A DNA stretch of 64,000 nucleotides from Candidatus Aenigmatarchaeota archaeon (GTDB lineage Archaea > Aenigmatarchaeota > Aenigmatarchaeia > GW2011-AR5), in NCBI GenBank assembly GCA_016187335.1, contig JACPJW010000001.1, forward strand, positions 671,159-735,158, given 5' to 3'. Below are positions 1,094-18,180 of the stretch, one piece after another. Each line of letters begins with the position of its first letter. Position 1 is the first letter of the stretch. The notes beneath the pieces were generated by a model. The model saw only the letters and a list, made by a program, of their open reading frames with translations, was not told the DNA's origin and did no database searches. A program made the position numbers and the translations under genes.

Positions 1094-1852
1094 TTATTTC
1101 AGAGTGAATTTTATTCTTTCAAATTCGTCTATTTTTCTCTTTGCGGATTTTAGGTATCTGTATGTTTTCTGTATTCTGATGGCAACCTTGTCTGCATAGG
1201 CCTCTTCTTCATCTGAATCGTGGTGAAACCTTGCCAGCAGCGAAAGCGGCGAGAAAAATTTAAGCAGAGAAAAAGACAGTTTTAATACAGATGCCTTGCG
1301 TTTCAGATGCCCAAGTTCATGCAGTATTACAGCTTCTATCTCTTTTTTGTTAAGAAGGTCAATAAGCCCTGCAGAAAGGAATATCATTGATTTGAATGAT
1401 CTGAAAGAAAATGCGACGGGGTTCGCGTTGTCGATTACGTAAACCTTCGGCATTCTGATTTTCATCCTTGTAGAATGTTTCTCTACAAATCCGACTACGT
1501 GAAAATTCTCCACCTCGTATTTTCTGCTGAAGAACATGTAAAAGCCGGGTATAACTAAAAAACCTGCTACCGTGCTAATTAAAAGCGTTGTTGGAAGCGC
1601 CAGTGAAACTAAGTTCAAAAGGCTGTTTGTACATGCGCAAGTGAAACTGCACATAGTGGCATTTGTAGTCAAGACTACGAATGGGAAAAACAGGAAAATT
1701 AAATGGCCGTAAATAAGCCCGATTTTCGATTTTGTTGAAAGCTTGGATTTCTTCAGAACCAGCAGCGTAATTATGGCAAGCAAAAGGGAGCTTGCCATCA
1801 GCAGTAATTTGTCGGGGTCTATAGAAAACCCGGCATAGCACGCGTCCAACAT
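1094..1852 (-). CDS. BlaR1-like (M56/M48) membrane zinc metallopeptidase
   Basis: N-terminal TM helices, then a HELGH (HExxH) motif. Lies directly downstream of a BlaI-like repressor. Start placed at Met19 (1852), 1 nt after the upstream stop; the ORF track start is 1906. Confidence 0.6.
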   Translation of the reverse strand: MLDACYAGFSIDPDKLLLMASSLLLAIITLLVLKKSKLSTKSKIGLIYGHLIFLFFPFVVLTTNATMCSFTCACTNSLLNLVSLALPTTLLISTVAGFLVIPGFYMFFSRKYEVENFHVVGFVEKHSTRMKIRMPKVYVIDNANPVAFSFRSFKSMIFLSAGLIDLLNKKEIEAVILHELGHLKRKASVLKLSFSLLKFFSPLSLLARFHHDSDEEEAYADKVAIRIQKTYRYLKSAKRKIDEFERIKFTLK

Positions 1853-1853
1853 T

Positions 1854-2237
1854 CTACTTCCTCTTTGAAAACCTTTTATAAAAGTAATTGGCTGCGACAG
1901 TTCCAAAGTTGTTCATAAGCTTGTTTACAGTATGTTCAATAACTGACTCCTCGAATTCATGCTTTGTCTTTTTAGGATAATAAATATAATGTCCGCCACC
2001 ACGACCTTTCTCTATTGTTCTGGATACTATGCCTTTCTGGTGAAGCCTGTCAAGGGTTACCGCAACGCTTGTCAACGCAAAATTTCTGTTTCTTTTCAAT
2101 AGCCTGTGAAGTTCTGCGACACGGGCTTTGTCCATTTTCCACAGAAGGAGCAATATTTCTGTTTCCAGCGGGCTCAAAAGAGTTTTCACGCCCTTTCTGT
2201 CTAACCTTAATTTATTTACCTTCATCATAGAAACCAT
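1854..2237 (-). CDS. BlaI/MecI/CopY-family winged-helix transcriptional repressor
   Basis: LSPLETEILLLLW...ARVAELHRLL...TSVAVTLDRLHQKGIVSR is the penicillinase-repressor family signature. Paired with the BlaR1-like gene. Confidence 0.7.
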   Translation of the reverse strand: MVSMMKVNKLRLDRKGVKTLLSPLETEILLLLWKMDKARVAELHRLLKRNRNFALTSVAVTLDRLHQKGIVSRTIEKGRGGGHYIYYPKKTKHEFEESVIEHTVNKLMNNFGTVAANYFYKRFSKRK

Positions 2238-2399: not shown

Positions 2400-3773
2400 T
2401 TGAAGAAAAAACGCCCCAATACAAGCTATATGACTGACGAAGAAAAAGAAGCTTACGAGAAACTCCAAGAAAAGTTTGAGCTCGTGCCGAAGAAAGAGCA
2501 AAAGAAAAGAATTTCTAAAAAATCCACCCATGATTCTGAGAATGTTGTTTTGCATACAATAGGCATCGTAAAGCAGCCTCTTTACGCAAAAACTTTCGCC
2601 ACAAGCGCTATACTGTTTGGAATTCTGTACACATTTTTATACGGCCTATGGAGGATACCAGTTATAGATTTCGGATTTAACAGGTTCTCTGCTGTAGGGA
2701 TTTTAGATTATGCGTATCTGCTTATTATTACGGCCATCACGGGCTTGATGTTTGCTTTGTTCAAGTATGAAAGGGTTCAACACGTCAAATCAGGTTCCAA
2801 AGCTGGTTTGGGCGGCAGCGGATTGGCGGGTATTGTGTCGGCTATCTGCCCGGTCTGCCAAGGCATAACGATAACCGCATTGGGAGGAACAATAGCCACA
2901 TTGCCGCTTGCATTCCTTGTCCCTTACATAGGATTAATCCAACTTATGACAGTTTTGATTTTAGGTTTCGCGCTTTACCTAAAAGCTAACAGCGTATATA
3001 CGCAAACCTGCATAACGTGCAAAGTTAAGGTTGATAAAAAATTGCACACAGAAATTCCTTCTACGGGCACACCAAAAGCGAAAGAGCCCTTTTTGTACAG
3101 GAATAATATCGCTTTTGGCGCTTTGATTGTTTTGGTTTTGATGCTTGTTGCAAATAATTTTCTTATAACAACTGCTTACGCAAATGCCGGCGCATCTGCC
3201 GGCCTAAACGGCGACAGCGTATCTTTGAAAACGGGATTTGAATACGGCTCTAAAGTTACGCTAAAGCCAATGCCTTTGGCAACCGGCGAAAGCCCGCGAT
3301 TTCAGGGGTATAGAACAATAGTAAAGCCTTTGCCGACCATCAGCGAATTATCATTATCTCCGCCGACTGGTGACGTAGTTCAGGACCTTGTGAATAACGT
3401 TGTTCCAAGAGGGACACCATGGTACGGGCAAGAGGCGGGCGTAACATTTGACGACCCAATACAAGCGCAGCAGCTCTGGGCAAAAGGCAGGGCAATCCAG
3501 CTCGATGCTGCAGAGGAACAGCGATGGAGCAGGATAGTCAATTCATTCACATGCGACTACTGCTGTGGCTCTCCGCAGAATCCAACTATCATAACAAGGT
3601 GCGGTTGTGCGCACTCGGCAGCTGCGCAGGGCATGGCAAAATGGTTTGTAAAGAATTACGGAGACAAATACTCTGACGAAGAAATATACGGCGAAATGGC
3701 AAGATGGTATGCGTTGTGGTATCCCGGTCCTACAGTAAAGAGAATTGCAGAGGAGTTGCAGGCGGCAAATTAG
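2400..3773 (+). CDS. Polytopic membrane protein with an intramembrane CPVC motif and a C-terminal Cys-rich domain
   Basis: Lys/Glu-rich cytoplasmic N-terminus; TM helices containing SAICPVCQG; C-terminal FTCDYCCGSPQNPTIITRCGCAHS cluster. The start could instead be the ATG at 2430. Confidence 0.5.
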   Translation: MKKKRPNTSYMTDEEKEAYEKLQEKFELVPKKEQKKRISKKSTHDSENVVLHTIGIVKQPLYAKTFATSAILFGILYTFLYGLWRIPVIDFGFNRFSAVGILDYAYLLIITAITGLMFALFKYERVQHVKSGSKAGLGGSGLAGIVSAICPVCQGITITALGGTIATLPLAFLVPYIGLIQLMTVLILGFALYLKANSVYTQTCITCKVKVDKKLHTEIPSTGTPKAKEPFLYRNNIAFGALIVLVLMLVANNFLITTAYANAGASAGLNGDSVSLKTGFEYGSKVTLKPMPLATGESPRFQGYRTIVKPLPTISELSLSPPTGDVVQDLVNNVVPRGTPWYGQEAGVTFDDPIQAQQLWAKGRAIQLDAAEEQRWSRIVNSFTCDYCCGSPQNPTIITRCGCAHSAAAQGMAKWFVKNYGDKYSDEEIYGEMARWYALWYPGPTVKRIAEELQAAN

Positions 3774-3783
3774 GCATGATTTT

Positions 3784-4311
3784 ATGGCAAAAAGAAAGAA
3801 CAAAATCAGCGATAAAATGATTGGAATTATGATGGGTATAGCTTTCACGCTCAGCGCCATAGGGATAATCAATGCAGCATATGTTTTCTTTGCGCACAAA
3901 AATGAAGGAAATTCTATGATGGATTCAGGAGGTAGGATGCCTATGATGATGAGTTTCTCATATTCATCTCCTGATAATGCCGCCATACAAAGCCAGCAGC
4001 AAGAAGAACAAGAAGGCAAAAAGTTTTTGGATAACCTAAACAACAAAATAGTTGTCTGTCCACAACTCAAGAATGCAGATTTTGAGAAAATTGGTGAATA
4101 TTTTATGGGTCAATCCATTGGAGATACTTCGAGGCACATTGCCATGAATGAAATGATGAAATCAATGATGGGAGAACAGGGGGAAGAACAAATGCATATC
4201 GCAATGGGCAAGCGAATGAGTAATTGCGAACCTGACGCACCAATGCCTCAAAATATGATGGGCAGCGACATGATGTCTGGAAATATGATGCGCTCAATGA
4301 TGATGGGTTAA
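3784..4311 (+). CDS. Membrane-anchored Met/His-rich protein (Mets-motif-like, putative Cu(I) binding)
   Basis: Single TM helix (MIGIMMGIAFTLSAIGIINAAYVFF), then Met-rich segments (MMDSGGRMPMMMSF, MNEMMKSMMGEQGEEQMH, MPQNMMGSDMMSGNMMRSMMMG). Confidence 0.5.
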   Translation: MAKRKNKISDKMIGIMMGIAFTLSAIGIINAAYVFFAHKNEGNSMMDSGGRMPMMMSFSYSSPDNAAIQSQQQEEQEGKKFLDNLNNKIVVCPQLKNADFEKIGEYFMGQSIGDTSRHIAMNEMMKSMMGEQGEEQMHIAMGKRMSNCEPDAPMPQNMMGSDMMSGNMMRSMMMG

Positions 4312-4362: not shown

Positions 4363-4578
4363 ATGGAAAGAAAAGAGCTGCTGATGACGCTGATGATAGG
4401 CGTGCTTCTGCTCACGACAGCCATGCAGACAGTAGCTTTGGCAAGTTTGAGCAACGGACAGGTAGTGGTAAGAGGCAAAGCAGTTGCAAGCAGCCCGGCA
4501 CCAAGCTCAAGCGCGCCGTCGACAGGCGGTTCGGCATCTAGCTTAGCGAACTTGCCAAGCATGGTAGGCGGCTGCTAG
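4363..4578 (+). CDS. Small secreted peptide (71 aa) ending in GGC
   Basis: AAAGGAGG lies 9 nt upstream of the ATG at 4363. Signal-peptide-like LLMTLMIGVLLLTTAMQTVALA, Ser/Pro/Ala-rich body, C-terminus LPSMVGGC. Confidence 0.4.
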   Translation: MERKELLMTLMIGVLLLTTAMQTVALASLSNGQVVVRGKAVASSPAPSSSAPSTGGSASSLANLPSMVGGC

Positions 4579-4601: not shown

Positions 4602-6005
4602 ATGGGCAACAAAACATTAGACATTATTTTATATATTTTTATAGCGTTAGCAGTTGTACTTTCTGTCGTAAATTTTTCGCTTATATCTGCCCGAAGCGAA
4701 AAAGTAAAGGAAGCTGTTCTGTTGGCTGAAAAAGAAAACAAGCCGGCTAAATTGGAATTGATAAAAATTATCTCTTCTTCTTGCCAGGATTGTTTCGATA
4801 TAAATCCTGTTATTGAAACCCTCAAGAAAGCGAACGTCAACGTCACTTCTGAAAAAACTATAGATTTTTCTTCGCAGGAAGCAAAGCAGCTTATAAGTCA
4901 GTACAACATAGAAAAGCTTCCTACTGTTGTAGTTCTGGGTGAAGTCAATAAATCTTCCGTAGTCAATTTATGGAACCAGAACTGGTACGTTGAAATGGCT
5001 GACGGCACGCAGGTTTTAGCTGTTTATTCTGCCGTGGCTCCACCTTATGTGGACGCAGCATCCGGTGATTTCAGGGGTCTTGTAGCCTTAACGCATATTT
5101 TAGACGAATCGTGTCCGGATTGCGCAGACCTTATGCAGGTAATAAGCTTCTTCAAGCAGCAGAATGTCAAGTTCTCAAGCGAGAAAACAATTGACTATAC
5201 TTCTCAAGAAGCCAAAGACCTAATAGCTAAGTTTGAGGTGCAGAAAGTTCCAGCTTTGATTATCTCTAAGGATATTCTAGATTACCCAGCTATATCTCAA
5301 GTATGGGATCAGCTAAATACCAGTGAGAAGCAAGGTTTCTATGCGCTGCACACAACCGTTCCGCCATATAGGGATTTGGCCACAAACAAAATTGAAGGGT
5401 TGGTAACTGTAATTTACCTTAATGACAGCACATGTGCAAGCTGCTACGATGTCCAGATTAACAGGCAGATTCTGGAAAGAAACTTTGGAGTGGTAATTGC
5501 AAACGAGACAACTGATGATATAAATTCTGAAAACGGCAGATCGTTAGTAAAGCAGTACAACATAACAAAGGTTCCTATAATGCTTGCTTCCCCTGATGCC
5601 AGCGTGTATGCAGCCTTTACTGAGATCTGGCAACAGGTTGGGAATGTCGCTAAAGACGGATGGTATGTAATGAGAAAGCCGGAAGTTTTGGGAACTTACA
5701 AGGATCTAGCCAAGGGAATTGTTGTGAATGAGGTAACTGTTTATGCAGGCGAATTTGAATTCCAGCCAAATGCTATCGAGGTCAAGAAAGGTGAAACTGT
5801 TCGGCTGACTTTCATAAACGCGGGGACAGTTGAGCATGACTTTGTTATAGACGAGCTAAATGTAAGAACAAAACGCTTGCAGCCGAGAACATTAGAGACT
5901 ATAGAATTTGTGGCGGACAAAAGCGGCGCGTTTTCATTCTACTGTTCCGTTGAAGGCCATAGGCAGCAGGGTATGGAAGGATCTATTACTATAAGCCAGG
6001 TGTGA
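4602..6005 (+). CDS. Membrane-anchored fusion of three thioredoxin-like CxxC modules and a C-terminal cupredoxin domain
   Basis: N-terminal TM helix. Three repeats each carry CxxC (CQDC, CPDC, CASC) and a downstream K(L/V)P cis-Pro motif. C-terminus VEHDF...FYCSVEGHRQQGMEGSITI gives the His, Cys-x4-His-x4-Met pattern of a type-1 copper site. Confidence 0.65.
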   Translation: MGNKTLDIILYIFIALAVVLSVVNFSLISARSEKVKEAVLLAEKENKPAKLELIKIISSSCQDCFDINPVIETLKKANVNVTSEKTIDFSSQEAKQLISQYNIEKLPTVVVLGEVNKSSVVNLWNQNWYVEMADGTQVLAVYSAVAPPYVDAASGDFRGLVALTHILDESCPDCADLMQVISFFKQQNVKFSSEKTIDYTSQEAKDLIAKFEVQKVPALIISKDILDYPAISQVWDQLNTSEKQGFYALHTTVPPYRDLATNKIEGLVTVIYLNDSTCASCYDVQINRQILERNFGVVIANETTDDINSENGRSLVKQYNITKVPIMLASPDASVYAAFTEIWQQVGNVAKDGWYVMRKPEVLGTYKDLAKGIVVNEVTVYAGEFEFQPNAIEVKKGETVRLTFINAGTVEHDFVIDELNVRTKRLQPRTLETIEFVADKSGAFSFYCSVEGHRQQGMEGSITISQV

Positions 6006-6009
6006 GCAA

Positions 6010-6492
6010 ATGGGGGTCGCAAAGCCAAAATCCAATGTAGTTCTAGGCGCAGTCGTAATAGCCGCTGTGTTTGTTGCAGGACTGATTTACGTTCAATTCA
6101 CAAAGCAGAATGAAGTAGCGGATAATTACCAAGTTGCACCACCCGAAGAAGTCGTTAGGCAATATTTTACGTCGTGGAACAATAGAGACTGGCCCAATAT
6201 GTACGCAACTTTGTCAGACGGATTCAAGAAAATTGATCCCAATGCTAAAGACTTAGCTGCATTCAGAAACTTTGCAAGCTCTCAAGGTATAGAAGGCGTT
6301 AACATAATAAGCATAAAAGAAGAGTCTAATGACGGAACTACAGCTAGCGTTGTATATTCTATTGAATTCACATTATCAAATGGAAGCAAGAGGCCGTTCA
6401 GCGATAGATTTACACTGAAATTCAGGCAAGGCGACATCATTCCCGGCTGGAAGCTTATTCACCCGTACGGCCCCAACATTGATACTTCGTAG
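6010..6492 (+). CDS. Membrane-anchored NTF2/SnoaL-like domain protein
   Basis: N-terminal TM helix; VVRQYFTSWNNRDWPNMYATLSDGF resembles the SnoaL/NTF2 fold signature. Confidence 0.4.
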   Translation: MGVAKPKSNVVLGAVVIAAVFVAGLIYVQFTKQNEVADNYQVAPPEEVVRQYFTSWNNRDWPNMYATLSDGFKKIDPNAKDLAAFRNFASSQGIEGVNIISIKEESNDGTTASVVYSIEFTLSNGSKRPFSDRFTLKFRQGDIIPGWKLIHPYGPNIDTS

Positions 6493-6574: not shown

Positions 6575-7327
6575 ATGGACAATACAGAAAAATTTGCTTT
6601 TGGGTTTCTTGGAATAGCATCTATAATAGCGGTATTCGCAATGCTCTCTGCGTTTAATATCGTACAGCTCAATTCAAATCCAGCAACAGGAAATTCTGTC
6701 CAGAATTCAATGGGCCAGCGGTTAACAAGAATGAGCTTGTCGCCTTTCGATGTCCAGCTTGCGAAGCAGTTCATGGACAAGAACGGCGACGGCAAATGCG
6801 ATGTATGCGGCATGGATGTGCAGATATGCATAGACAGCGGGCAGATGCAGTGCAATATGGATTCCAAATCTACTATAGGTGTTCTAGGCTCGCAGCATAT
6901 TCATGCTGACTGGAAAATATATATAAACGGCAAAGAATTAGACGATAATTTTTTTGACTCTATAGCTATGAACATGTCAAATGAAAACAATGGCATATCG
7001 AGCAGTTTCATACATGTTGACAAAGGCGCGCCTTCACCGGAAAAAACAGGTAATGTATTGCATATGCATGCTACCGGAGTGCCATTATGGATATTCTTCA
7101 AAAGCGTGGGAATGGATTTCAATAAAGACTGCCTGTCGCTTTCAGATGGACAAAAATTCTGCAACGCTGGGGAAAATACTTTGAAATTCTATGTAAACGG
7201 AAAGCCTAACAGCGAATGGGAAAAATATGTTTTCAACGATCTGGACAAGATTCTGATTTCATATGGAGAAGAAACAGACCTGAGCCAGCAGCTGAATTCA
7301 ATAACGGATTTCGCAAAGAGTCATTGA
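6575..7327 (+). CDS. Membrane-anchored protein with a CxxCGM Cys cluster and a His-rich C-terminal domain (paralogue of 9454..10140)
   Basis: GAGGT lies 6 nt upstream of the ATG at 6575. TM helix; DKNGDGKCDVCGMDVQICIDSGQMQC; HIHADW...LHMHATG...KFYVNGK...NDLDKILISY aligns with the C-terminus of the 9454 gene product. Confidence 0.5.
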   Translation: MDNTEKFAFGFLGIASIIAVFAMLSAFNIVQLNSNPATGNSVQNSMGQRLTRMSLSPFDVQLAKQFMDKNGDGKCDVCGMDVQICIDSGQMQCNMDSKSTIGVLGSQHIHADWKIYINGKELDDNFFDSIAMNMSNENNGISSSFIHVDKGAPSPEKTGNVLHMHATGVPLWIFFKSVGMDFNKDCLSLSDGQKFCNAGENTLKFYVNGKPNSEWEKYVFNDLDKILISYGEETDLSQQLNSITDFAKSH

Positions 7328-7333
7328 TACTTT

Positions 7334-7792
7334 ATGAAAAGGAAAAATAGTAGCAAGGCGCATAAAGAAAAATTTCTCAGCATGTTTAGTGGGCTTTCAG
7401 GTAGCTTGAGCTTTCTGGGCGGATGGCAGGTTTGCCATAATTTATGCCTAGGTATTATAGCTCTGCTGTCAGTGGTGGGCATAGCAGTAGTTGGCATGCC
7501 GTTTTTGTTTTTAACGCAGTACGCTGTATATTTCTGGTCGCTAGCTGCATTGCTTCTTGTACCTACGCTTATATTGTACTGGAAAAACAGAAAATGCATC
7601 TCCGCGAATCTGATACTGTTTAACATAGGCATTGTAATCGCAAGCGTGCCTTTTGCGCAGCTGCAGGCTTATCAAGTAGCATTCTGGCTAGTTGGCGGCG
7701 TTTTAATTGCATCTTCTGTGTGGATGTTTGTAAAGCCGAAGTTTCAAAAGAACAATAAAAATTTAGCTTCTGGTGCTATTTCAGCGCCTTGA
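7334..7792 (+). CDS. Small integral membrane protein with a CxxxC motif
   Basis: About 4 TM helices; GGWQVCHNLCLG at the first helix; 6 nt downstream of the preceding gene. Confidence 0.4.
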   Translation: MKRKNSSKAHKEKFLSMFSGLSGSLSFLGGWQVCHNLCLGIIALLSVVGIAVVGMPFLFLTQYAVYFWSLAALLLVPTLILYWKNRKCISANLILFNIGIVIASVPFAQLQAYQVAFWLVGGVLIASSVWMFVKPKFQKNNKNLASGAISAP

Positions 7793-7937: not shown

Positions 7938-8780
7938 TTACGGGAAAAATAAGGCAACAAATTGCTTAGCGTAAAGCACTGTAATTATGATGAATAACCC
8001 AGCCAGCATGAGAACGATTGCGGATATTTTTAGTATCTTATGGCTCGACTCGCGCAGGAAATTTATCTTAGCGGTGCCGACAAGAAGAGAAACCGTCAGC
8101 ATCAAAATTCCCATTGTCAGCGAATAAATAACAAAAGCCAAAAGCGCAGCATTAAACCCGCTAGCCAACGCAAGGACAATCAATCCAGCAAGAATAGGGC
8201 CGGTGCAGCCTATATTTCCCAAGTTATAACCGAACCCGTAGAAGAAATAATTCTCTGAGCTCTTTTTTCCCGAAACAAATTTATGACTTATGCTTTTGAA
8301 CAGTTGCCCCTGTACTGAAATATGAAAGAATTGCAGTACGCCAAGGATGAACAAAATTCCGCCTACTATTGCCCTTATTGTCAGAGTAATACCCGAAAGC
8401 TGGCCGCTTTCTGCAACCGAAAAGGCAGACCCAATTCCCAGGCCAATGAAGGCAAGAATAACGCCCAGAATTATGTTGAATGAGACTAATCCTGCCGATG
8501 CCAAAACCCCGTTTCTAAAAATAGCACCCTTGTGTAAGTTCTTGCCCTTCCCGTATAGTGAGAGGTATGCTGGCAGCAAACCGAAAGAGCATGGGGAAAA
8601 GAATGTTGCCAGGCCTGCAAATACTGCAACAATCATCAGAGGCAGCACGCCCAAAGTAGCCATATTTTTTGCGAATTCAAGAAAGCCAAAATACCCTGCA
8701 ACCGTGATTGCTATCAATACTGCGAGGAATACTACATATAAGCCAGCTTGTCCCTTGGCATCTGAACCCATAAAAATCAC
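7938..8780 (-). CDS. ccdA: CcdA/DsbD-family transmembrane thiol-disulfide electron transporter
   Basis: FFSPCSFGLLPAYL and GNIGCTGPILAGL are the two conserved Cys-containing TM motifs of the DsbD_2/CcdA family. Confidence 0.75.
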   Translation of the reverse strand: MIFMGSDAKGQAGLYVVFLAVLIAITVAGYFGFLEFAKNMATLGVLPLMIVAVFAGLATFFSPCSFGLLPAYLSLYGKGKNLHKGAIFRNGVLASAGLVSFNIILGVILAFIGLGIGSAFSVAESGQLSGITLTIRAIVGGILFILGVLQFFHISVQGQLFKSISHKFVSGKKSSENYFFYGFGYNLGNIGCTGPILAGLIVLALASGFNAALLAFVIYSLTMGILMLTVSLLVGTAKINFLRESSHKILKISAIVLMLAGLFIIITVLYAKQFVALFFP

Positions 8781-8816: not shown

Positions 8817-9209
8817 ATGAAATATAAGGCAGGCAGTTTCATGGCAGAAACCAGTTTACGCGCAGTAACTAATGGAAAAGAATGCAAAATGGTAGGCGGC
8901 GGCTATTGCCCAAAGCCCCTGGAAATCGCTGCTTCTTTCCTCAGTAGGAAGTGGACGCTAAGCATAATAGTAACGATAGGAAATTTCGGCTCGCTAAGGT
9001 TCAACGATTTGCTCAGGCGAATTGAAGGTATAACACAGAAAACATTGTCCGAAAGGCTGAAAGAGCTTGAGCGGCACAATATAATAATCCGTCGCGCTTT
9101 CAATGAAAAGCCTCCCCGTGTCGAATATTCGCTTACGCCAAACGGTCATAATGTTCGAAAAGCTGTTTTGCCGCTTCTGAAACTTGCTGAAAAAAAACAC
9201 TTTCATTAA
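8817..9209 (+). CDS. HxlR-family transcriptional regulator
   Basis: CP...LSRKWTLSIIVTIGNFGSLRFNDLLRRIEGITQKTLSERLKELERHNII...EYSLTPNG is the HxlR signature. Divergent from ccdA. Confidence 0.75.
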   Translation: MKYKAGSFMAETSLRAVTNGKECKMVGGGYCPKPLEIAASFLSRKWTLSIIVTIGNFGSLRFNDLLRRIEGITQKTLSERLKELERHNIIIRRAFNEKPPRVEYSLTPNGHNVRKAVLPLLKLAEKKHFH

Positions 9210-9453: not shown

Positions 9454-10140
9454 ATGGAAGAAAAAGAAGAAAAACACCAATGCAGTGAATGCGGAAAGGA
9501 GTTCAGCGCGGCGGAAGGTCTGGCGCAGCACATGCGCGACAAGCATTCGGCAATGACCAGCCATGAACTCAAGGAACAGCGCAAAAAAGAGAGGGAAGAT
9601 CAGCTGAAAAAAGAAAAGGATAAGTCGGAGCGCTCAAAGCTGACTAGAAAGATCCTGATTGTCGGCGGTGCTTTTCTTTTACTGTCAGGGCTGATTTACG
9701 CTTTTCTTGTCCTTAGCAAAGGCGGCGGCGAATCGCGCCTTGCCGACGAGGAATATATCCTGCGTACCAATCTGAGGACGCACAGCGGCGTAAGCATGCA
9801 CATACATCCCCATTTGATAATAATCGCAAACAACGAAAACGTGAATATACCGGCTGAGATAGGCATTGAAGGCGGCATAATGAGAGTTATACATACCCAT
9901 GACGCAACAGGAACAATTCATCTGGAATCGCCGGTTCCTAAGGACTTCACTTTAGGCCAATTCTTCTTCGTGTGGTCGCGAACCAGCGGCGAGCCGAAAG
10001 TATTCAATTCGTCTTGCATCCTCAGCTATTGCAATAACGGAACGAAGGCGGTGAAGATGTTCGTGAACGGCAAAGAAAGCGACGAATACGAGAATTACAT
10101 CATGCACGATCTGGACAGGATAGAGATAAGATACGAATAA
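9454..10140 (+). CDS. C2H2 zinc finger / TM helix / extracytoplasmic His-rich domain protein
   Basis: HQCSECGKEFSAAEGLAQHMRDKH fits C-x2-C-x12-H-x4-H. Lys/Glu-rich linker, TM helix (ILIVGGAFLLLSGLIYAFLVL), then HIHPHL...IHTHDATGTIH...MFVNGK...HDLDRIEIRY, paralogous to 6575..7327. Confidence 0.55.
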   Translation: MEEKEEKHQCSECGKEFSAAEGLAQHMRDKHSAMTSHELKEQRKKEREDQLKKEKDKSERSKLTRKILIVGGAFLLLSGLIYAFLVLSKGGGESRLADEEYILRTNLRTHSGVSMHIHPHLIIIANNENVNIPAEIGIEGGIMRVIHTHDATGTIHLESPVPKDFTLGQFFFVWSRTSGEPKVFNSSCILSYCNNGTKAVKMFVNGKESDEYENYIMHDLDRIEIRYE

Positions 10141-11349: not shown

Positions 11350-12363
11350 ATGCCAGAACACATTCACGCAGCCAGCAAAACAAAATGGGACGTTGTAATC
11401 ATCGGCGCAGGCTCTGCAGGTCTCACTGCAGCGGTTTATACCTGCAGGAAAAAGCTGTCCACGCTGATTTTAAGCGTTGACGTAGGCGGTCAGACAATCC
11501 TGACAAACCATATTGAGAATTATCCAGGCTTTTTCAAAGAGACACCCGGCTATCCGTCCGGGCCAAAACTTATGCAGATTTTTGAGGAGCAGGCAAAGCA
11601 TTTCGGCGCAGAGATAATAATGGGCAAGGTGACGAAGGTAGAGGTTGTGAATGAAAGCCCCACGCCGGAAAATCCTTACAAGTTTGTTCTGGAATTAAGC
11701 AACGGCGAGCGGTACGAAGCAAGGGTTGTTTTGCTGGCATACGGCAAGGTTCCCCGCGAGCTTGGCATCCCCGGCGAGAAAAAGTTCATAGGCCGCGGCG
11801 TCAGCACGTGCGCAACATGCGACGCTCCCTTATTTAGAAACAAAAACGTTGCTGTTATAGGCGGCGGCAACTCAGCTGTTGAGGCCGCTGAGCTTTTGAC
11901 AAAGTTCGCCAGCAAGGTTTACCTCGTCCATCGGAGGGACCAGTTCCGCGCTGACGAAATAACCATGGACAAGGTAAAGGCGTCGCCGAAAGTAGAACTT
12001 GTTTTAAACAGCATGCCTGCAGAAATCAAAGGCGACAAGTTTGTAAGCGGTCTGGTTGTCCAGAATGTCAATACTCAGGAAACAAGAGAACTTCCTGTTC
12101 ACGGTGTTTTCGTCGAGATCGGCTATATCGTGGTGACGGATTTTGTCAAAGATTATGTCGAGGTGAACAAGGCCAATGAAATTGTCGTTAATGAAAACTG
12201 CGAGACGAGGACGCCCGGTTTGTTCTCGGCAGGTGATTTAACAAACATACCGTTCAAGCAGACCATAACTTCCGCAGGCCAGGGCGCGATAGCCGGCTTG
12301 TCCGCCTACAACTACCTGATGCGCCTGCAGGGCAAGGCAGGCATTAAGGCTGATTGGGCTTGA
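11350..12363 (+). CDS. trxB: Thioredoxin-disulfide reductase
   Basis: FAD motif DVVIIGAGSAGLTAAVY, redox-active CATCDA, NAD(P)H motif VAVIGGGNSAVEEA-like. Confidence 0.85.
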   Translation: MPEHIHAASKTKWDVVIIGAGSAGLTAAVYTCRKKLSTLILSVDVGGQTILTNHIENYPGFFKETPGYPSGPKLMQIFEEQAKHFGAEIIMGKVTKVEVVNESPTPENPYKFVLELSNGERYEARVVLLAYGKVPRELGIPGEKKFIGRGVSTCATCDAPLFRNKNVAVIGGGNSAVEAAELLTKFASKVYLVHRRDQFRADEITMDKVKASPKVELVLNSMPAEIKGDKFVSGLVVQNVNTQETRELPVHGVFVEIGYIVVTDFVKDYVEVNKANEIVVNENCETRTPGLFSAGDLTNIPFKQTITSAGQGAIAGLSAYNYLMRLQGKAGIKADWA

Positions 12364-12788: not shown

Positions 12789-13391
12789 ATGGCACATGTA
12801 TTGAAAGAACTTCCTTGGGACCCGAAGAAAGTCACGTGCGTTTCGCAGCAGGTCGTGCAGTGGCACCACGGCACGCATCACGCTGGTTACGTAAAAAAGC
12901 GCAATGAAATTGAGGAAAAGATAGATAAATTCGACAAAGCCGCTGCCAATGCAAATTATTCTGATTGGGGCGAGCTGAAGCGCAGAGAAACCTTTAACGC
13001 TTCCGGCATTATACTGCACGAGATATACTGGGAAAACATGGGCGGCGACGGCAAACACGACATGGACGCTGAAATTGTGAAGGCAATCATTCATTCTTTC
13101 GGTTCTTTCGAGAAGTGGAAAGAGGATTTCGTTGCCACGGCAAAAGCAAGCTTAGGCTGGGCAATATTGTGCTGGGACCCGTCTGACGGCAAGCTGCACA
13201 ACTTCCTGGTTGATTTCCACAACAACGGCGCTGTGTGGGGTTCCGTGCCGTTAATAGCCATAGACGTTTTTGAGCACGCATACTACCATGATTACGGGCC
13301 GGACAGGGCGAAATACATAGAAGCTTTCCTGAACAATCTGGACTGGGCAGCAATCAACGACAGGTTCAGGAAGAACGTGCCGAAACATTGA
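12789..13391 (+). CDS. sod: Fe/Mn superoxide dismutase
   Basis: HHGTHHAGYV and DVFEHAYYHDY metal-ligand motifs. Confidence 0.9.
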   Translation: MAHVLKELPWDPKKVTCVSQQVVQWHHGTHHAGYVKKRNEIEEKIDKFDKAAANANYSDWGELKRRETFNASGIILHEIYWENMGGDGKHDMDAEIVKAIIHSFGSFEKWKEDFVATAKASLGWAILCWDPSDGKLHNFLVDFHNNGAVWGSVPLIAIDVFEHAYYHDYGPDRAKYIEAFLNNLDWAAINDRFRKNVPKH

Positions 13392-14090: not shown

Positions 14091-14887
14091 TCAAACCACT
14101 TCTGCAGGTTTCCAGACAAAATATTTCCCAGATCGCGCATCGAAATGTTAAGGATACTTGCGACATGAATTATGGATTCCAGCGAATAGTCGCAGCTTAC
14201 ATAAGGAACGTCAGAACCATATACTATGCTTGTTTTGTCCGCTTTGTCTATGAGGTTGTAAAGGTCAAATACGCTTGTCGCCGACGTTTCGAAATAAACA
14301 TACCTTGATTTTGACATTTTTCTGATGACCCTGTCCATGTCGATAAAAGCTGAATGACCTAAAATAAGGCGGAGTCTCGGGAAATCTTTCACGACCATTT
14401 CCAGTTCGACCGATATTTCATTCAGCCCGTGACCTGTATGTATCAGCACTGGTAAGTCGTGCTTTTCTGCTTTGGCATATACTTTCATTGCTTCGTCGGA
14501 TGCAATGTCAAAATGCTGCGAGCGTGGATGCAGCTTTATGCCCATGAATCCCTGTGATGCACGCTTCTCAAACTCTTCTTTCCATTTTCTTTTTGGATTC
14601 AGGCGAAAGAATGGAATAAGCTTTCTCTTGTGGGATTTGTAAGCGTTGTATACAAAGTCGTTTGGCTTTGAAAAACTCTGGTCGTAGGGATCATTTAGTG
14701 GAAATATAACTGCCTTTTCTATTCTGCAGCTTTTGATATCCTTCATCAACTCATTTAATGAAAAAAGTGTTCCGTCCTTGTCTTTGCCTATGTGTGTATG
14801 AGCATCCCATACCTCGAACTGGTCGAAAACCCACTCTGCTACCTTGAAAGCTTTCTCGCCAACAAAGTATTTTGTCCATTTAGGCAT
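14087..14887 (-). CDS. Metal-dependent amidohydrolase (TIM-barrel, Amidohydro_2-like)
   Basis: WDAHTHIG near the N-terminus; later HTGH and GHS His motifs; GSDVPY near the C-terminus. Confidence 0.6.
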   Translation of the reverse strand: MPKWTKYFVGEKAFKVAEWVFDQFEVWDAHTHIGKDKDGTLFSLNELMKDIKSCRIEKAVIFPLNDPYDQSFSKPNDFVYNAYKSHKRKLIPFFRLNPKRKWKEEFEKRASQGFMGIKLHPRSQHFDIASDEAMKVYAKAEKHDLPVLIHTGHGLNEISVELEMVVKDFPRLRLILGHSAFIDMDRVIRKMSKSRYVYFETSATSVFDLYNLIDKADKTSIVYGSDVPYVSCDYSLESIIHVASILNISMRDLGNILSGNLQKWFE

Positions 14888-14936
14888 AATGACACAGAAA
14901 ACTATGAGATTTAAATCTTTTATACATTTTTATTCC

Positions 14937-15869
14937 ATGTTAAAGATAGGAATCGTTTTTGACAGGGTCAAATGGATTCAAAGACCTTTCGACAAGAGGT
15001 ACTCTTATTCTTACAGGATTCTGTCAAAGGTGGCAAGACAGCACGGCATTGAAGTCTATATAAGCGACCTGAAAAATTACAGGGCGAGAAAATTTGCAAA
15101 ATGCTGGTTTTGCGAAAAAAGTTGGAAAATACTCCGCAACAGGTATATTGACATGGTTTTTGACAAAATGAGCACTTCCGGCAGGAATGTCCTGAAAAGA
15201 ATGCGGGTGAGAATGATGAGGGAATTGCCTATTGTTAACCACCCCGAACTGAACGAAATTTCTGAGGACAAGTATCTTTCTTATACGATCTTCCGGGAAT
15301 ATTTCCCGAAAACATACCTTCTAAGCACAAGCGGCATAAGGAAGGCTCCGGCAGGACTTTATGTAATGAAACCTAGGCACGGCTCAAGAGGAGAATTTAT
15401 CAGAATAATGGAAAAGGAAAAGCTACAACCGAAGAAAGACTTTATTTTTCAGGAATTCATCGACACGTCAGGCGGCATTAAGGATGTCATAAACAAAGTT
15501 CACGACTTGAGGCTGGTCTCAATAAACGGAAAAATAATCAAGGCATACCTTAGAGTCCAAAAAAAAGGCATTATAAACAATATGGATACCGGAGAGTTTG
15601 AGATTCATATCGAAAAATCTAAAGTACCAGAAAGCGCAGTTAAAATATTCAGGATAGTTGACAGGAAACTTAGTAAGTACGATTTCAGGTTCTATACAAT
15701 AGATTTTTTGGTTGACAAAGATCAGAAACCTTGGATATGCGAGCTAAACACTCATCTGGGTCTGGGGATTGCAGGTAAAAAAACGAAAGAAATATATTTT
15801 AACATGTACAGAGAAATTCTGCTTGCTATGAAAAGGTATTATCTAAAACTCGGGTCCGGAAAAAACTAG
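14937..15869 (+). CDS. ATP-grasp ligase (YheC/YheD- or RimK-like), paralogue 1
   Basis: KPRHGSRGE..., FQEFIDTSGG...HDLRLVSINGKII, TIDFLVDKDQKPWICELN. Start moved to Met32 (14937) to match its paralogue. Confidence 0.6.
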   Translation: MLKIGIVFDRVKWIQRPFDKRYSYSYRILSKVARQHGIEVYISDLKNYRARKFAKCWFCEKSWKILRNRYIDMVFDKMSTSGRNVLKRMRVRMMRELPIVNHPELNEISEDKYLSYTIFREYFPKTYLLSTSGIRKAPAGLYVMKPRHGSRGEFIRIMEKEKLQPKKDFIFQEFIDTSGGIKDVINKVHDLRLVSINGKIIKAYLRVQKKGIINNMDTGEFEIHIEKSKVPESAVKIFRIVDRKLSKYDFRFYTIDFLVDKDQKPWICELNTHLGLGIAGKKTKEIYFNMYREILLAMKRYYLKLGSGKN

Positions 15870-15872
15870 ACT

Positions 15873-16805
15873 CTAGCCAATGCAGGATTTTACCGCCTTC
15901 ATGATGCACCTGCAGATTTTTTTATAGATTTTCTGTTGCCCGCCCACCTTTATTTTGTAATACAATCGAAATCCGGGATGCGAGTTGAGTTCGATTATCC
16001 AAGGCCTCTGTTTCTTGTCAATTAGAAAATCAATCGAATAAAGCCTAGGAACAAATTTATTGAATTTGCTGTCAACATAATTTGCTATTCTCATGACTTT
16101 TTTAGGGATTTTCCTTATTCTTACGAGTCTGCCGCCAAGCGAAATGTTGCTAATAAGACCCTTTCTAGGAACCCTGAGGTAAAAATCCAGAATTTTTCCG
16201 TTTAGAACCAGCAGCCTAAGGTCGTGAATTCCTTTGTACACGCCTTTTATTCCTGCGGATGTGTCTACAAATTCCTGCACTATATAGTCTTTCTTCAGTT
16301 TTCTTAGCCTGTACTTTTCCATTACCTTGACGCCCGCACCACCGGCACCGAATCTCGGCTTCACAACGGCAAGACGGTTTTTGATTTTTTTTAATCCTTT
16401 CAGGGAAATGGAAGTTTTCGGAACGTACCTTCTGAATAACTTGTGCGTGAGATATTTGTCGTTGCATAGATCCTCAATAAAAGGGTCGTTCATCATCAAT
16501 AACACTTTCTTAAATTTTTTTCTCAGGTTCCGCATGAAATCATGGTGCTTCCTGTTGAAGCTTAAAACCCTGTCAAAAACGAAATTGACAGGCACGCTTT
16601 TCTCTTTTCTTTTTTCAAGCAGGTTCCAGCACAGAAGAAATTTCCCTCTATTGTACCATTCTGGCTTCGCTACAACGACCTTTACACCAATTTTCTTTGC
16701 AACCTCAGAGAATTTCCTATAAGCTTTGAAGGTACTGCGATCATTGAAAGGCTTGTTCAGAAAAATGCCGTCAGTATCATTATACGTTATTCCCAGAGTT
16801 TTCAT
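15873..16805 (-). CDS. ATP-grasp ligase, paralogue 2
   Basis: KPRFGAGGAG..., VQEFVDTSAG...HDLRLLVLNGKIL, SIDFLIDKKQRPWIIELN. The ATG at 16805 lies 4 nt after the GCS2 stop. Confidence 0.6.
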   Translation of the reverse strand: MKTLGITYNDTDGIFLNKPFNDRSTFKAYRKFSEVAKKIGVKVVVAKPEWYNRGKFLLCWNLLEKRKEKSVPVNFVFDRVLSFNRKHHDFMRNLRKKFKKVLLMMNDPFIEDLCNDKYLTHKLFRRYVPKTSISLKGLKKIKNRLAVVKPRFGAGGAGVKVMEKYRLRKLKKDYIVQEFVDTSAGIKGVYKGIHDLRLLVLNGKILDFYLRVPRKGLISNISLGGRLVRIRKIPKKVMRIANYVDSKFNKFVPRLYSIDFLIDKKQRPWIIELNSHPGFRLYYKIKVGGQQKIYKKICRCIMKAVKSCIG

Positions 16806-16809
16806 GAAA

Positions 16810-18180
16810 TCACTCCGCAAGTCTTGATACAAGCTTTTTTGTATTCTCTATGTCCTTTTCAATGTTTCGCGATATTCTGAGCGCAATATCTGCTGCTGCT
16901 TTGTTTGGCAAAGATTCTTTATAACCTATTTTTCTTGCTTCAGAAATTATCTCATCCGACACGGTTTTTTTCTTCTGGACCATTTCTTTAAGCGGCTTAA
17001 GGAATTTTTTTCTGTCAGAAGGCAATATCTTGGAAGCCAGTTTCAGGAAGCGCGAACAGCAAAGCCTTAAATCAGGGCTTTCCATCCCGTAAAGCGCTGA
17101 ATCGCGCTGCAGCACGTTGTAAACGTAGCTGTAAGGCGGTATGAATATTCTGTCGCCTTCCATTTTGAACGGCTCGCGTATCGCAATGTCGCTGTCAACA
17201 ACATTCACATAATCTTCATGGATTGATTTCAAAATGAACTTCATTGTTACAGCCAGCGACGCCAGAACTTCAAACCTGTTCATGTCCATGCCGCGCATCT
17301 CAAAAGTGCCGTTAGGGTTTATCTTCACAGGCGACCAGTTAGTGTCAAGAACAGAACCGTAGAGGGCTAGTGTTTTGATGTTAATTCCCAGCTTCTTGAT
17401 AAGCAGCGACCATTCCCTGAATCTGTCATCTATCAAGTGCATTATGTCAAGAAGCGTGTGATGATAAGGCGGCAGCCCGCCGAAATCGTGGAAATCAGAG
17501 TACAAGCCGTCAACGCCAAAAATCCTGCTGCCTCTGTAAAACATCAGCCGCGAATCCTTGCCGTAAAGCCTTCCCTCATAATAAGGCGAAGACTGGGCGA
17601 ATGTCGTGAACACGGGATCCATCGCAACAAGCATGTTGTAGCTTCCGACCATTGTCTGGCTTATCCTGGATTTAATGAAAATTTTCAGATGCTTGCTGAT
17701 GTAATCAAACATGCCCCTCGGCAAGGTATAGTGGCAATGGAAGCCGATGCAACGGCCGGCAATCTTGAATCTTTCTTTTCCGAATATCTTCTCCTTTATT
17801 CCGTAGCCTCCTTTCTTTCTCATTGAAGGGCTGAATTTTCCCGGATATGTTCCGTAGAAGTAAGGCATGTAACCCATTTTTTCCATGGCGTCAAGAAGCT
17901 GCTGGGTTCTTTCAAGCATATCGTGCATTGTGCCAGTTATTGTCCGGGAAGGAAACGTATCGATTTCAATCATGTTATTGGCGCATTCTTTCTTCGCGTT
18001 GCCCGGAATTTTTTCTAGGATTTTGTCTGCAGAATGCGAAACATTGCCATCGCTGTCAATTATCATGAACTCTGCTTCAAGCCCTATCATATGATGTTTC
18101 AATGAGCGTTTCCGCATTCCCAAGATTTTTCTTAGGTCCTCGGCTATTTCTTCTGCTATGTTAGGATTTTTTTCTTTCAT
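16810..18180 (-). CDS. Glutamate-cysteine ligase family 2 (YbdK-like carboxylate-amine ligase)
   Basis: IGLEAEFMIID near the N-terminus and the overall size fit the GCS2 family. Confidence 0.6.
   Translation of the reverse strand: MKEKNPNIAEEIAEDLRKILGMRKRSLKHHMIGLEAEFMIIDSDGNVSHSADKILEKIPGNAKKECANNMIEIDTFPSRTITGTMHDMLERTQQLLDAMEKMGYMPYFYGTYPGKFSPSMRKKGGYGIKEKIFGKERFKIAGRCIGFHCHYTLPRGMFDYISKHLKIFIKSRISQTMVGSYNMLVAMDPVFTTFAQSSPYYEGRLYGKDSRLMFYRGSRIFGVDGLYSDFHDFGGLPPYHHTLLDIMHLIDDRFREWSLLIKKLGINIKTLALYGSVLDTNWSPVKINPNGTFEMRGMDMNRFEVLASLAVTMKFILKSIHEDYVNVVDSDIAIREPFKMEGDRIFIPPYSYVYNVLQRDSALYGMESPDLRLCCSRFLKLASKILPSDRKKFLKPLKEMVQKKKTVSDEIISEARKIGYKESLPNKAAADIALRISRNIEKDIENTKKLVSRLAE

Follow-up and report, generated by a model that had tools for sequence, protein, structure and literature searches.

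What would a protein that joins an array of thioredoxin-like modules to a copper-binding domain do at the surface of an archaeon? The question is raised by a gene at positions 4602..6005 (+ strand) of a 64,000-nucleotide stretch of Candidatus Aenigmatarchaeota DNA, referred to throughout as the window. The open reading frame (ORF), its Pfam and NCBIfam domains, an AlphaFold2 model and homologs identify the product as a membrane-anchored protein of 467 amino acids (aa) in which three thioredoxin-like modules are followed by a cupredoxin. With moderate confidence, we read this protein as an extracytoplasmic, anchored thiol-disulfide oxidoreductase, in which a CxxC array of the PDI/PDO style is rigidly fused to a type-1 cupredoxin, and which would stand at the centre of an inducible envelope operon of DPANN archaea. 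Judged by its gene content, that operon probably carries electrons from the cell interior to surface thiols and copper.

Domain architecture of the 467-residue protein

The original prediction saw three internally homologous modules, each keeping a CxxC and a K(L/V)P motif, and both the homology and the motif positions were borne out. Module 1 (aa 45-159; 4734..5078, +) carries CQDC at aa 61-64 (nt 4782-4793) and K-L-Pro at aa 105-107 (nt 4914-4922); module 2 (aa 160-266; 5079..5399, +) carries CPDC at aa 171-174 (nt 5112-5123) and K-V-Pro at aa 215-217 (nt 5244-5252); and module 3 (aa 267-372; 5400..5717, +) carries CASC at aa 278-281 (nt 5433-5444) and K-V-Pro at aa 323-325 (nt 5568-5576). 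A BLASTP comparison of the 467-aa protein against itself found no internal repeats; because the modules, each ~107-115 aa long, are only ~26-34 % identical to one another, profile-profile comparison was needed to detect them. Using module profiles built from 35 homologs, hhalign linked module 1 to module 2 (E 4e-34), module 1 to module 3 (E 2e-25) and module 2 to module 3 (E 3e-36), with probabilities of 99.7-99.9 %, and since all three are connected in this way the triplication is genuine.

Conservation follows the motifs closely. All six CxxC cysteines (C61/C64, C171/C174 and C278/C281) are invariant in an alignment of 38 homologs, as are P217 and P325, while P107 is at least 90 % conserved; this proline, the putative cis-proline, lies 43-45 residues after the CxxC in each module. 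Apart from these six, the only cysteine in the protein is C448, and its histidines stand at positions 165, 250, 412 and 453.

Pfam assigns Thioredoxin_3/Thioredoxin to module 1 (aa 47-115) and Thioredoxin_2 to module 2 (aa 163-221); the assignment of module 3 comes from hhalign and from the AlphaFold model with its Foldseek matches, not from a direct Pfam match. The model of aa 45-372 has a predicted local distance difference test score (pLDDT) of 95.3 and a predicted template modelling score (pTM) of 0.84, and it gives each module the beta-alpha-beta-alpha-beta-beta(-alpha) order of thioredoxins and glutaredoxins. Foldseek matched this model to PDI, ERp57, ERdj5, the archaeal PDO 1a8l (prob 1.00), a QSOX1 thioredoxin fragment and the N-terminal domain of AhpF. 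With the full-length model (pLDDT 92.1, pTM 0.73) it returned cupredoxin matches only, and the thioredoxin arm became visible with the separate model. Global TM-scores are low (<0.25 versus PDO and PDI), which points to thioredoxin folds in a new mutual arrangement. The thioredoxin fold of the repeats is thus supported by Pfam, AlphaFold and Foldseek together; by predicted fold and motifs the three modules belong to the thioredoxin-fold CxxC superfamily, and their redox activity is predicted.

The type-1 copper ligand pattern that had been proposed for the C-terminal 95 residues is also present, as a full His/Cys/His/Met set in register with the nitrite reductase structure 2dv6. This type-1 cupredoxin (aa 373-467; 5718..6002, +) follows module 3 without a linker, module 3 running directly into the first cupredoxin strand, and the junction is modelled with pLDDT >=93 over aa 360-390. 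According to the 2dv6 alignment, its putative ligands are H412 (nt 5835-5837, +), C448 (5943-5945, +), H453 (5958-5960, +) and M458 (5973-5975, +). Over aa 377-464, Pfam reports Cupredoxin_1 (PF13473) with 46.6 bits (cutoff 27; E 4e-12), and Copper-bind (PF00127) reaches 30 bits (cutoff 21.2). A sequence search of the PDB matched the domain to the tethered type-1 copper domain of nitrite reductase 2dv6 (E 3.5e-13) and also to 6tfd; the H412 segment and the whole C448-x4-H453-x4-M458 loop are identical, residue for residue, to the matching 2dv6 segments. The model superposes on copper-bound 4hcf with a TM-score of 0.92 and an rmsd of 1.2 A (Foldseek), and the ligands are conserved in 15 of the 17 fused homologs and in 11 of 12 fused representatives. 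On these comparisons the ligand set is not a chance pattern, and sequence and predicted structure agree in predicting a formed copper site.

At the other end of the protein, the expected transmembrane (TM) anchor was confirmed as a single N-terminal hydrophobic segment at aa ~5-29 (4614..4688, +; Kyte-Doolittle hydropathy 2.64). It is the sole such segment, and the AlphaFold2 model is helical over aa 3-46. In 118 homologs the anchor is flanked by a net charge of +2.2 on its N side and +0.5 on its C side, a positive-inside bias that predicts an N-in/C-out signal anchor and hence an ectodomain outside the membrane. The ORF begins with ATG, preceded by a Shine-Dalgarno-like GGTTGATGA 4-12 nt upstream, and because it lies 23 nt from the gene before it and 4 nt from the gene after it, we place it inside a tightly packed operon. 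An artefact of ORF calling or assembly was ruled out, as the protein is present in many independent assemblies.

A family of triple-thioredoxin proteins and its fusions

A word-indexed search recovered 133 homologs, all from DPANN metagenome-assembled genomes, most of them ~380 aa long and without a cupredoxin. When 1.84 billion cluster representatives were scanned exhaustively with HMMER, 618 matched at E<=1e-30, and the top 150 are all members of the triple-thioredoxin family. Among these 150, twelve (~8 %) fuse the thioredoxin array to a cupredoxin and four carry four CxxC modules. The triple-thioredoxin proteins therefore form a large, uncharacterised family that is confined to DPANN archaea. 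The original prediction did not recognise the architecture as a described one; our search of the searchable literature found no description of a thioredoxin-cupredoxin fusion, of the family or of its operon, and the source annotations of homologs ("cupredoxin domain-containing protein" or "hypothetical," nothing more) are uninformative.

The fused proteins do not form one simple lineage. In a neighbour-joining tree of the thioredoxin region, built without support values, fused and unfused forms are interleaved within one Aenigmatarchaeota-like clade, the basal branches of which carry the fusion, and the fused representative P0057 lies far off in the tree. In P0057 and P0243 a Q-rich linker joins the array to a cupredoxin that is only 33 % identical to that of the window, and in P0273 the triple array is followed by a CuA-type loop, C-x3-C-x3-H-x2-M (Pfam COX2, E 1e-10). 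Because the junctions and copper-site types differ (direct, Q-rich linker, CuA-type), at least three independent cupredoxin fusions are suggested. The named architectural variants of the family (P0047, P0054, P0272, P0273 and P0358) comprise CuA-type fusion, four-module and CcdA composite forms.

The CcdA composite is P0358 (locus L036, 8001-10082), a single chain of 693 aa made up of a DsbD_TM domain, two thioredoxin modules (CDSC and CEQC), a Q/N linker and a type-1 cupredoxin. Its DsbD_TM part is called by Pfam (E 2e-9) with both catalytic cysteines present, and the protein occurs on two independent assemblies, behind genes for BlaI, BlaR, a Cys-rich protein and a ...QVGGC peptide. As Rosetta-stone evidence, this fusion suggests that CcdA, thioredoxin modules and cupredoxin act together, in that order. 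Cupredoxins also accompany the family as separate proteins: stand-alone forms of the type-1, CuA-like or CupA-like kinds lie beside unfused triple-thioredoxin genes in L021, L022, L026, L033, L005 and L006.

The conserved operon and its probable regulation

Our comparison covered 34 loci, the window and 33 other non-redundant ones from Aenigmatarchaeota, Woesearchaeota and other DPANN archaea; many contigs are short, and the counts given for loci are lower bounds. Gene order around the triple-thioredoxin gene is strongly conserved, and its operon partners are all membrane-anchored, as it is itself. The first operon gene (2400..3773, +) encodes a four-TM domain (CPVC within the membrane, CITC on the cytoplasmic side), a fifth TM helix and an extracytoplasmic Cys-rich domain, and it is found, fused or split, in 32 of the 34 loci. 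The protein is weakly MerT-like (NCBIfam MerTP, E 0.022).

The anchored, extracytoplasmic Cys-rich domain (3072-3770, +) is an observation in its own right. It carries an invariant CC-G...C-x-C-x-H...G...E...W...P pattern and has 297 homologs, all of them DPANN proteins annotated as "hypothetical"; none has a Pfam domain, and neither a name nor a fusion among them is informative. At 58-83 %, its identity among homologs is above that of the triple-thioredoxin protein, and it looks like an undescribed family of metal or redox domains. Small polytopic proteins in which a TM helix contains a CxxC recur as well (window 2400-3050, +; L001 5982-6638 and 10500-10952; L006 11833-12237; L008 6207-6710). 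Weak similarity to MerT recurs among them (E 0.02-0.04), one type has a second, cytoplasmic CxxC, and their motifs would suit either the transport of a thiophilic metal or a second thiol relay across the membrane.

Between the first gene and the triple-thioredoxin gene lie two others. The first (3784..4311, +) encodes an anchored Met-rich protein with stretches MPMMMS..., MNEMMKSMMG and a C-terminal ...MMGSDMMSGNMMRSMMMG, a Met motif of the Cu(I) type; homologs occur in 13 of 34 loci, and the composition points to copper binding. The second (4363..4578, +) encodes a small tethered peptide in which a TM helix is followed by a Ser/Pro/Gly-rich linker and then by an invariant C-terminal ...SLANLPSMVGGC-stop. 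This gene lies directly 5' of the triple-thioredoxin gene in 31 of 34 loci (for example, L001 7763-7978; L003 7762-7980; L005 6532-6744; L006 7746-7964; L036 7645-7941), and its products end in the pattern ...S-L-x-N-L-P-S-M-V-G-G-C-stop. An MVGGC end is shared by 41 ORFs across the loci, some of them encoding Cys-rich domain proteins of 224-276 aa, and we found no literature match for the MVGGC/QVGGC tail. Judged by its sequence, the peptide might act as a tethered thiol, as a tethered ligand for Cu(I) or as a recognition tag.

Downstream, the triple-thioredoxin gene is followed by one for a highly conserved, anchored NTF2/SnoaL-like protein (6010..6492, +; weak Pfam SnoaL matches) that has dozens of invariant residues and is present in 29 of 34 loci. 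Next come an anchored protein with a His-rich domain (CxxC plus HxH...H; 6575..7327, +; 24/34 loci), whose extracytoplasmic domain conserves C107/C110/H140/H142/H179 and has no Pfam match, and a small polytopic membrane protein with C-H-x-x-C and a further cysteine (7334..7792, +; 18/34 loci; C34/H35/C38/C88 conserved). A paralog of the His-rich protein (9454..10140, +) has a cytoplasmic N-terminal C2H2 zinc finger (Pfam zf-C2H2) and might on that basis be a transmembrane signalling protein. A PDB sequence search with the Cys-rich and His-rich proteins gave no match, and nothing scored above cutoff when the window partners and 10 of their divergent homologs were scanned with Pfam and NCBIfam, which gave weak MerT and CcmH hints only. 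The operon holds at least four conserved protein families without annotation.

Several neighbouring genes could serve an electron route into the envelope. On the opposite strand (7938..8780, -) lies a candidate CcdA/DsbD_TM-type thiol-disulfide electron transporter with SPC... and GCTGP motifs. It aligns by BLASTP with a Pfam-called DsbD_TM protein of L006 (E 8e-15, both cysteines aligned) and with the DsbD_TM part of P0358 (E 4e-11); as the window protein has no Pfam match of its own, we regard it as a divergent member of DsbD_TM. A low-molecular-mass (low-Mr) thioredoxin reductase-like flavoprotein with CATC (11350..12363, +; Pfam Pyr_redox_2, E 2e-47; present in 7 of 34 loci) is a candidate cytoplasmic electron source. 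Between them is a gene for an HxlR-family transcription regulator of the redox type (8817..9209, +; Pfam E 7e-23; NCBIfam RrpA/RrpB-like), and a gene for an Fe/Mn superoxide dismutase (12789-13391) lies near the redox operon. In L001, a paralogous operon has the order Cys-rich protein, triple-thioredoxin protein, TM-anchored AhpC/redoxin and CcdA. Copper genes are found within 10 kb of triple-thioredoxin genes, with CopA in 8 loci and a multicopper oxidase downstream in 2 (L001 and L018), and MerT/HMA (L001), TRASH, PadR, CutA1 and a CupA-like cupredoxin occur as further neighbours. DsbB or VKOR was seen in none of the loci.

The operon is probably inducible, through repression by a BlaI-like protein and release by a BlaR1-like protease, as the regulatory genes and candidate operators suggest. 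Divergent from it in 18 of 34 loci is a pair consisting of a BlaI/MecI/CopY-family (Penicillinase_R) repressor (1854..2237, -; Pfam E 6e-15) and a BlaR1-like M56/M48 membrane zinc protease (1094..1906, -; Pfam) that has no penicillin-binding sensor domain and whose HExxH is invariant in 18 loci. The divergent promoter contains two perfect palindromes, TTTACA-N5-TGTAAA (2299-2315 and 2367-2383), which are candidate repressor operators. They are the only 2 matches in the 64 kb, with 0.24 expected and 0/100 shuffles reaching 2, and at least 9 other loci have the same box in the intergenic region next to the BlaI gene. TACA/TGTA half-sites resemble the operators of BlaI, MecI and CopY; the candidate operator has such half-sites but an N5 spacer. 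A CSFTCAC cysteine cluster in the BlaR1-like protease was considered as a redox or metal sensor and dropped, since the cluster is not conserved.

Proposed electron transfer, copper and competing explanations

The scheme that we infer, in its topology, direction of electron flow, substrates and copper-thiol transfer alike, has four steps. In the cytoplasm, NADPH, thioredoxin reductase and thioredoxin would reduce the CcdA-type transporter, which in a second step would reduce the CxxC modules outside the membrane. These modules would, third, reduce or reshuffle disulfides of the Cys-rich protein, the ...MVGGC peptide and other surface proteins, with the peroxiredoxin of the paralogous L001 operon as a further candidate target; the outcome would be to counter copper- or oxidant-driven thiol damage, in the manner of the ScsB/ScsC, DsbD/DsbC and TlpA pathways. 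Gene context and homology suggest these three steps. In cupredoxin-bearing variants, a fourth step would follow, in which dithiols pass single electrons downhill to the type-1 copper and the copper relays them to an external acceptor, which could be Cu(II), a multicopper oxidase with O2, or another cupredoxin. Here the argument draws on the recurrence of the fusion, on thermodynamics and on analogy with the tethered cupredoxin of nitrite reductases. Thioredoxin-family couples lie at about -270 to -120 mV and type-1 copper sites at about +200 to +700 mV; transfer from thiol to copper would therefore be downhill.

The original prediction called the modules a disulfide-reductase array and proposed that fusion to a blue-copper domain would allow electrons to pass between thiols and copper. 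The first name is reasonable given the CcdA, thioredoxin reductase and peroxiredoxin neighbours, with a direction of electron flow that we infer from them. The second proposal is plausible and has indirect support in the recurrent fusions, the stand-alone cupredoxins beside unfused members and the CcdA-thioredoxin-thioredoxin-cupredoxin chain. About 92 % of the family is without a cupredoxin, so thiol-copper transfer would be an accessory and not the core function.

Other observations, too, count against our reading. In two fused lineages, P0037 and P0039, the Cys, His and Met ligands (3 of 4) are lost and the domain is kept, which, together with the rarity of the fusion, marks copper redox chemistry as dispensable. 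A CcdA-type transporter lies within 10 kb in only 11 of the 34 loci (again a lower bound), and the 64-kb window holds neither a multicopper oxidase nor a CopA. The CxxC dipeptides are highly variable among homologs, which is unusual for a tuned redox catalyst, and no cofactor is evident in the protein that could act as a gate between two-electron chemistry at thiols and one-electron chemistry at copper.

Known systems provide partial precedents for each half of the scheme. Thioredoxin-fold isomerases with three catalytic domains function in copper resistance, are supplied by a DsbD-like protein and bind Cu(I) (PMC8900818, PMC5524982, PMC10907172, PMC3322552). In the DsbD-fed pathways (ScsB/ScsC(/ScsD), DsbD-DsbC and TlpA), as would be the case in the window, extracytoplasmic thioredoxin-fold CxxC proteins are fed through DsbD or CcdA with a link to copper stress; PmScsC and CcScsC are assemblies of three catalytic domains that bind Cu(I), and ScsB feeds envelope peroxiredoxins, which compares with the L001 paralogous operon. 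The likeness does not extend to membership at the sequence level. The window protein is not a member of the ScsC/DsbA family, as it has no DsbA-type Pfam match and its ~110-aa modules are short Grx/PDO-like units without the helical insert of DsbA-like proteins; a faint Thioredoxin_4 match appears in some homologs only. Furthermore, the ScsC trimer, formed by proteins with an N-terminal trimerisation helix, is non-covalent, whereas the three catalytic units here are covalently in tandem, and the window system differs in having a single archaeal membrane, a fused cupredoxin, different and uncharacterised partners, and regulation of the BlaI/BlaR type in place of CpxR/CueR. The resemblance to ScsC/DsbA is thus functional only, and by analogy the protein would work most like a DsbD-fed envelope reductase or isomerase.

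Structurally, the best matches to the thioredoxin array are PDO (P. furiosus 1a8l) and PDI, which share with it tandem thioredoxin folds, a CxxC at a helix N-terminus and cis-proline loops. PDO, however, is a cytoplasmic protein of two units and ~226 aa, whereas the window protein has three units and an anchor; the sequence match to 1a8l has E 2e-3, and with an NCBIfam score of 31.6 bits against a cutoff of 185 (TIGR02187) the protein is not a PDO member. PDI, a soluble protein of the endoplasmic reticulum, contains non-catalytic b domains, and neither PDI nor PDO has a metal domain. The closest solved relatives of aa 373-467 are the cupredoxins of nitrite reductase and 4hcf, with an identical C-x4-H-x4-M loop; the former serve as covalently tethered electron-transfer modules in three-domain nitrite reductases (PMC13324648), where their partner is a T1/T2 copper enzyme and not a thiol-disulfide array. 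The novelty of the window system lies in its three catalytic units in tandem, their fusion to a cupredoxin, its occurrence in archaea and the proteins that accompany it.

The first alternative to electron transfer is that the system handles metal. The CxxC motifs, M-V-G-G-C tails, Cys-rich domain and MerT-like proteins would then be ligands that move a thiophilic metal (Cu(I), possibly Hg or Cd), the triple-thioredoxin protein would be a surface metallochaperone or sponge, and the cupredoxin would be one more copper site. The Met-rich, His-rich and Cys-rich operon partners fit such a role, as do the CopA, CupA-like cupredoxin, TRASH, HMA and CutA1 neighbours, the variable CxxC dipeptides and the repeated MerT-like matches of the TM-CxxC partners (E 0.022, E 0.04; MerT/HMA gene in L001), and ScsC and ScsB themselves bind Cu(I) through CxxC (PMC8900818, PMC10907172). 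Those MerT similarities are, however, far under the family cutoffs, and the cis-proline loop typical of redox-active thioredoxin folds is kept in all three modules. A type-1 site binds copper too tightly for a relay role, and the CcdA, thioredoxin reductase and peroxiredoxin neighbours, together with the CcdA-thioredoxin-cupredoxin fusion, favour the transfer of electrons over that of metal. We consider metal handling unlikely; it could, all the same, hold alongside electron transfer. A mercury-resistance operon in particular was set aside, since the Pfam-annotated genes of the loci include no flavoprotein of MerA size, and the pyridine-nucleotide disulfide oxidoreductases among them are all of the ~330-aa thioredoxin reductase type.

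To about the same degree doubtful is a reading in which thioredoxin array and cupredoxin merely share a location. The cupredoxin would then be a CopI-like copper-tolerance or electron-carrier domain tethered by the array, or a client of the thioredoxin modules as CoxB is of TlpA, with no catalytic electron flow through it; in the client version, the modules would keep the cysteine ligand reduced for metallation. TlpA reduces the copper-site cysteines of the cupredoxin CoxB (PMC7558416), and the CuA-type fusion of P0273 has two ligand cysteines that would need such reduction. CopI (NF051440) is also the top NCBIfam match of the cupredoxin (E 1.9e-11), and both are plastocyanin-like and extracytoplasmic, with CopI encoded alongside copper-tolerance genes. 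Its score of 44.1 bits is, however, far under the cutoff of 280, so that the window cupredoxin is not a member; of the 180 profile positions the best stretch covers 42-86 only, CopI occurs by itself as a soluble protein, and its extra His/Met-rich copper sites are absent here. The interleaving of fused and unfused forms in the tree, the loss of copper ligands in P0037 and P0039, and L003, where the same operon as in the window contains an unfused triple-thioredoxin gene, all agree with mere co-localisation. Against it stand the repeated, apparently independent fusions and the linker-less, high-confidence junction, which argue for functional coupling, and the order of domains in P0358, which mirrors the proposed electron path.

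Least probable of the alternatives, and in our view quite improbable, is QSOX-like oxidative folding, in which the array would insert disulfides and be re-oxidised by its own cupredoxin through O2 or a multicopper oxidase, standing in for DsbB/VKOR and quinone in organisms without respiratory chains: the resemblance of the array to PDI and the QSOX1 fragment, the downhill step from thiol to copper, the CP-x-C of module 2 (like oxidising DsbA/Grx types), the lack of DsbB/VKOR in the loci and the multicopper oxidases of L001 and L018 speak for it, but the CcdA-type reductant conduit, even fused to a thioredoxin-cupredoxin unit, would short-circuit an oxidase, a cupredoxin or other evident oxidant is missing from most of the family, and many of these DPANN archaea come from groundwater, where O2 may be scarce. 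QSOX is still a useful comparison, as a PDI-like thioredoxin CxxC is fused there to a module through which its electrons leave for a terminal acceptor, as we propose for the window protein. That module is an Erv/ALR FAD domain, which works with two electrons and reduces O2 directly, whereas one-electron type-1 copper and a CcdA supply of reductant would take its place here; Pfam finds no Erv/ALR domain in the window protein.

The anchored oxidoreductase at the centre of an inducible operon remains our preferred reading. A more ambitious version, which we advance only tentatively and think improbable as it stands, is a thiol-based trans-envelope electron and metal system of DPANN archaea, with CcdA as its conduit, the triple-thioredoxin protein as its hub, the ...LPSMVGGC peptide as a thiol cofactor or Cu(I) carrier, a four-Cys/one-His domain, and export of reducing equivalents through copper. 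In its cupredoxin variants, two-electron thiol chemistry would be turned into one-electron copper chemistry and exported to Cu(II), to O2 via a multicopper oxidase, or to redox proteins of a host. To our knowledge, DPANN archaea lack quinones and respiratory chains.

Three further observations concern other genes of the window. A gene like that of GCS2-type glutamate-cysteine ligase (16810-18180, -) lies beside ATP-grasp genes (14844-15869, +; 15873-16832, -) and an amidohydrolase, and this 14844-18180 cluster might encode a low-molecular-weight thiol pathway close to the redox operon, at a distance of a few kb. The gene for RNA polymerase A'' (Rpb1 domain 5; 36076-38553, -) contains an intein with a LAGLIDADG endonuclease domain, and in L003 a Cdc48-like AAA ATPase also has an intein. 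A nucleoside diphosphate kinase ORF (26331-27320, -) encodes 329 aa, ~2x the usual length, with its Pfam NDK match in two stretches, and the split match and double length suggest an insertion or extension.

In archaea that possess neither an outer membrane nor quinones nor DsbB/VKOR, the redox control of surface cysteines and the handling of copper are poorly understood, with DPANN episymbionts as the clearest case. The locus described here offers a concrete, testable candidate system, an inducible operon found across Aenigmatarchaeota, Woesearchaeota, Pacearchaeota and Nanoarchaeota, in which repeated fusions have connected the triple-thioredoxin protein both to a CcdA conduit, at one end, and to cupredoxins, at the other. 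The tethered peptide with its invariant C-terminal cysteine motif is possibly of interest beyond this protein. A 2024 study found orphan cupredoxin ("nosZ-like") proteins of unknown role to be widespread in DPANN (PMC10936187); transfer from thiol to copper, if true, would not only be a new coupling of two-electron and one-electron chemistry at the cell surface but might also give such cupredoxins a possible role.

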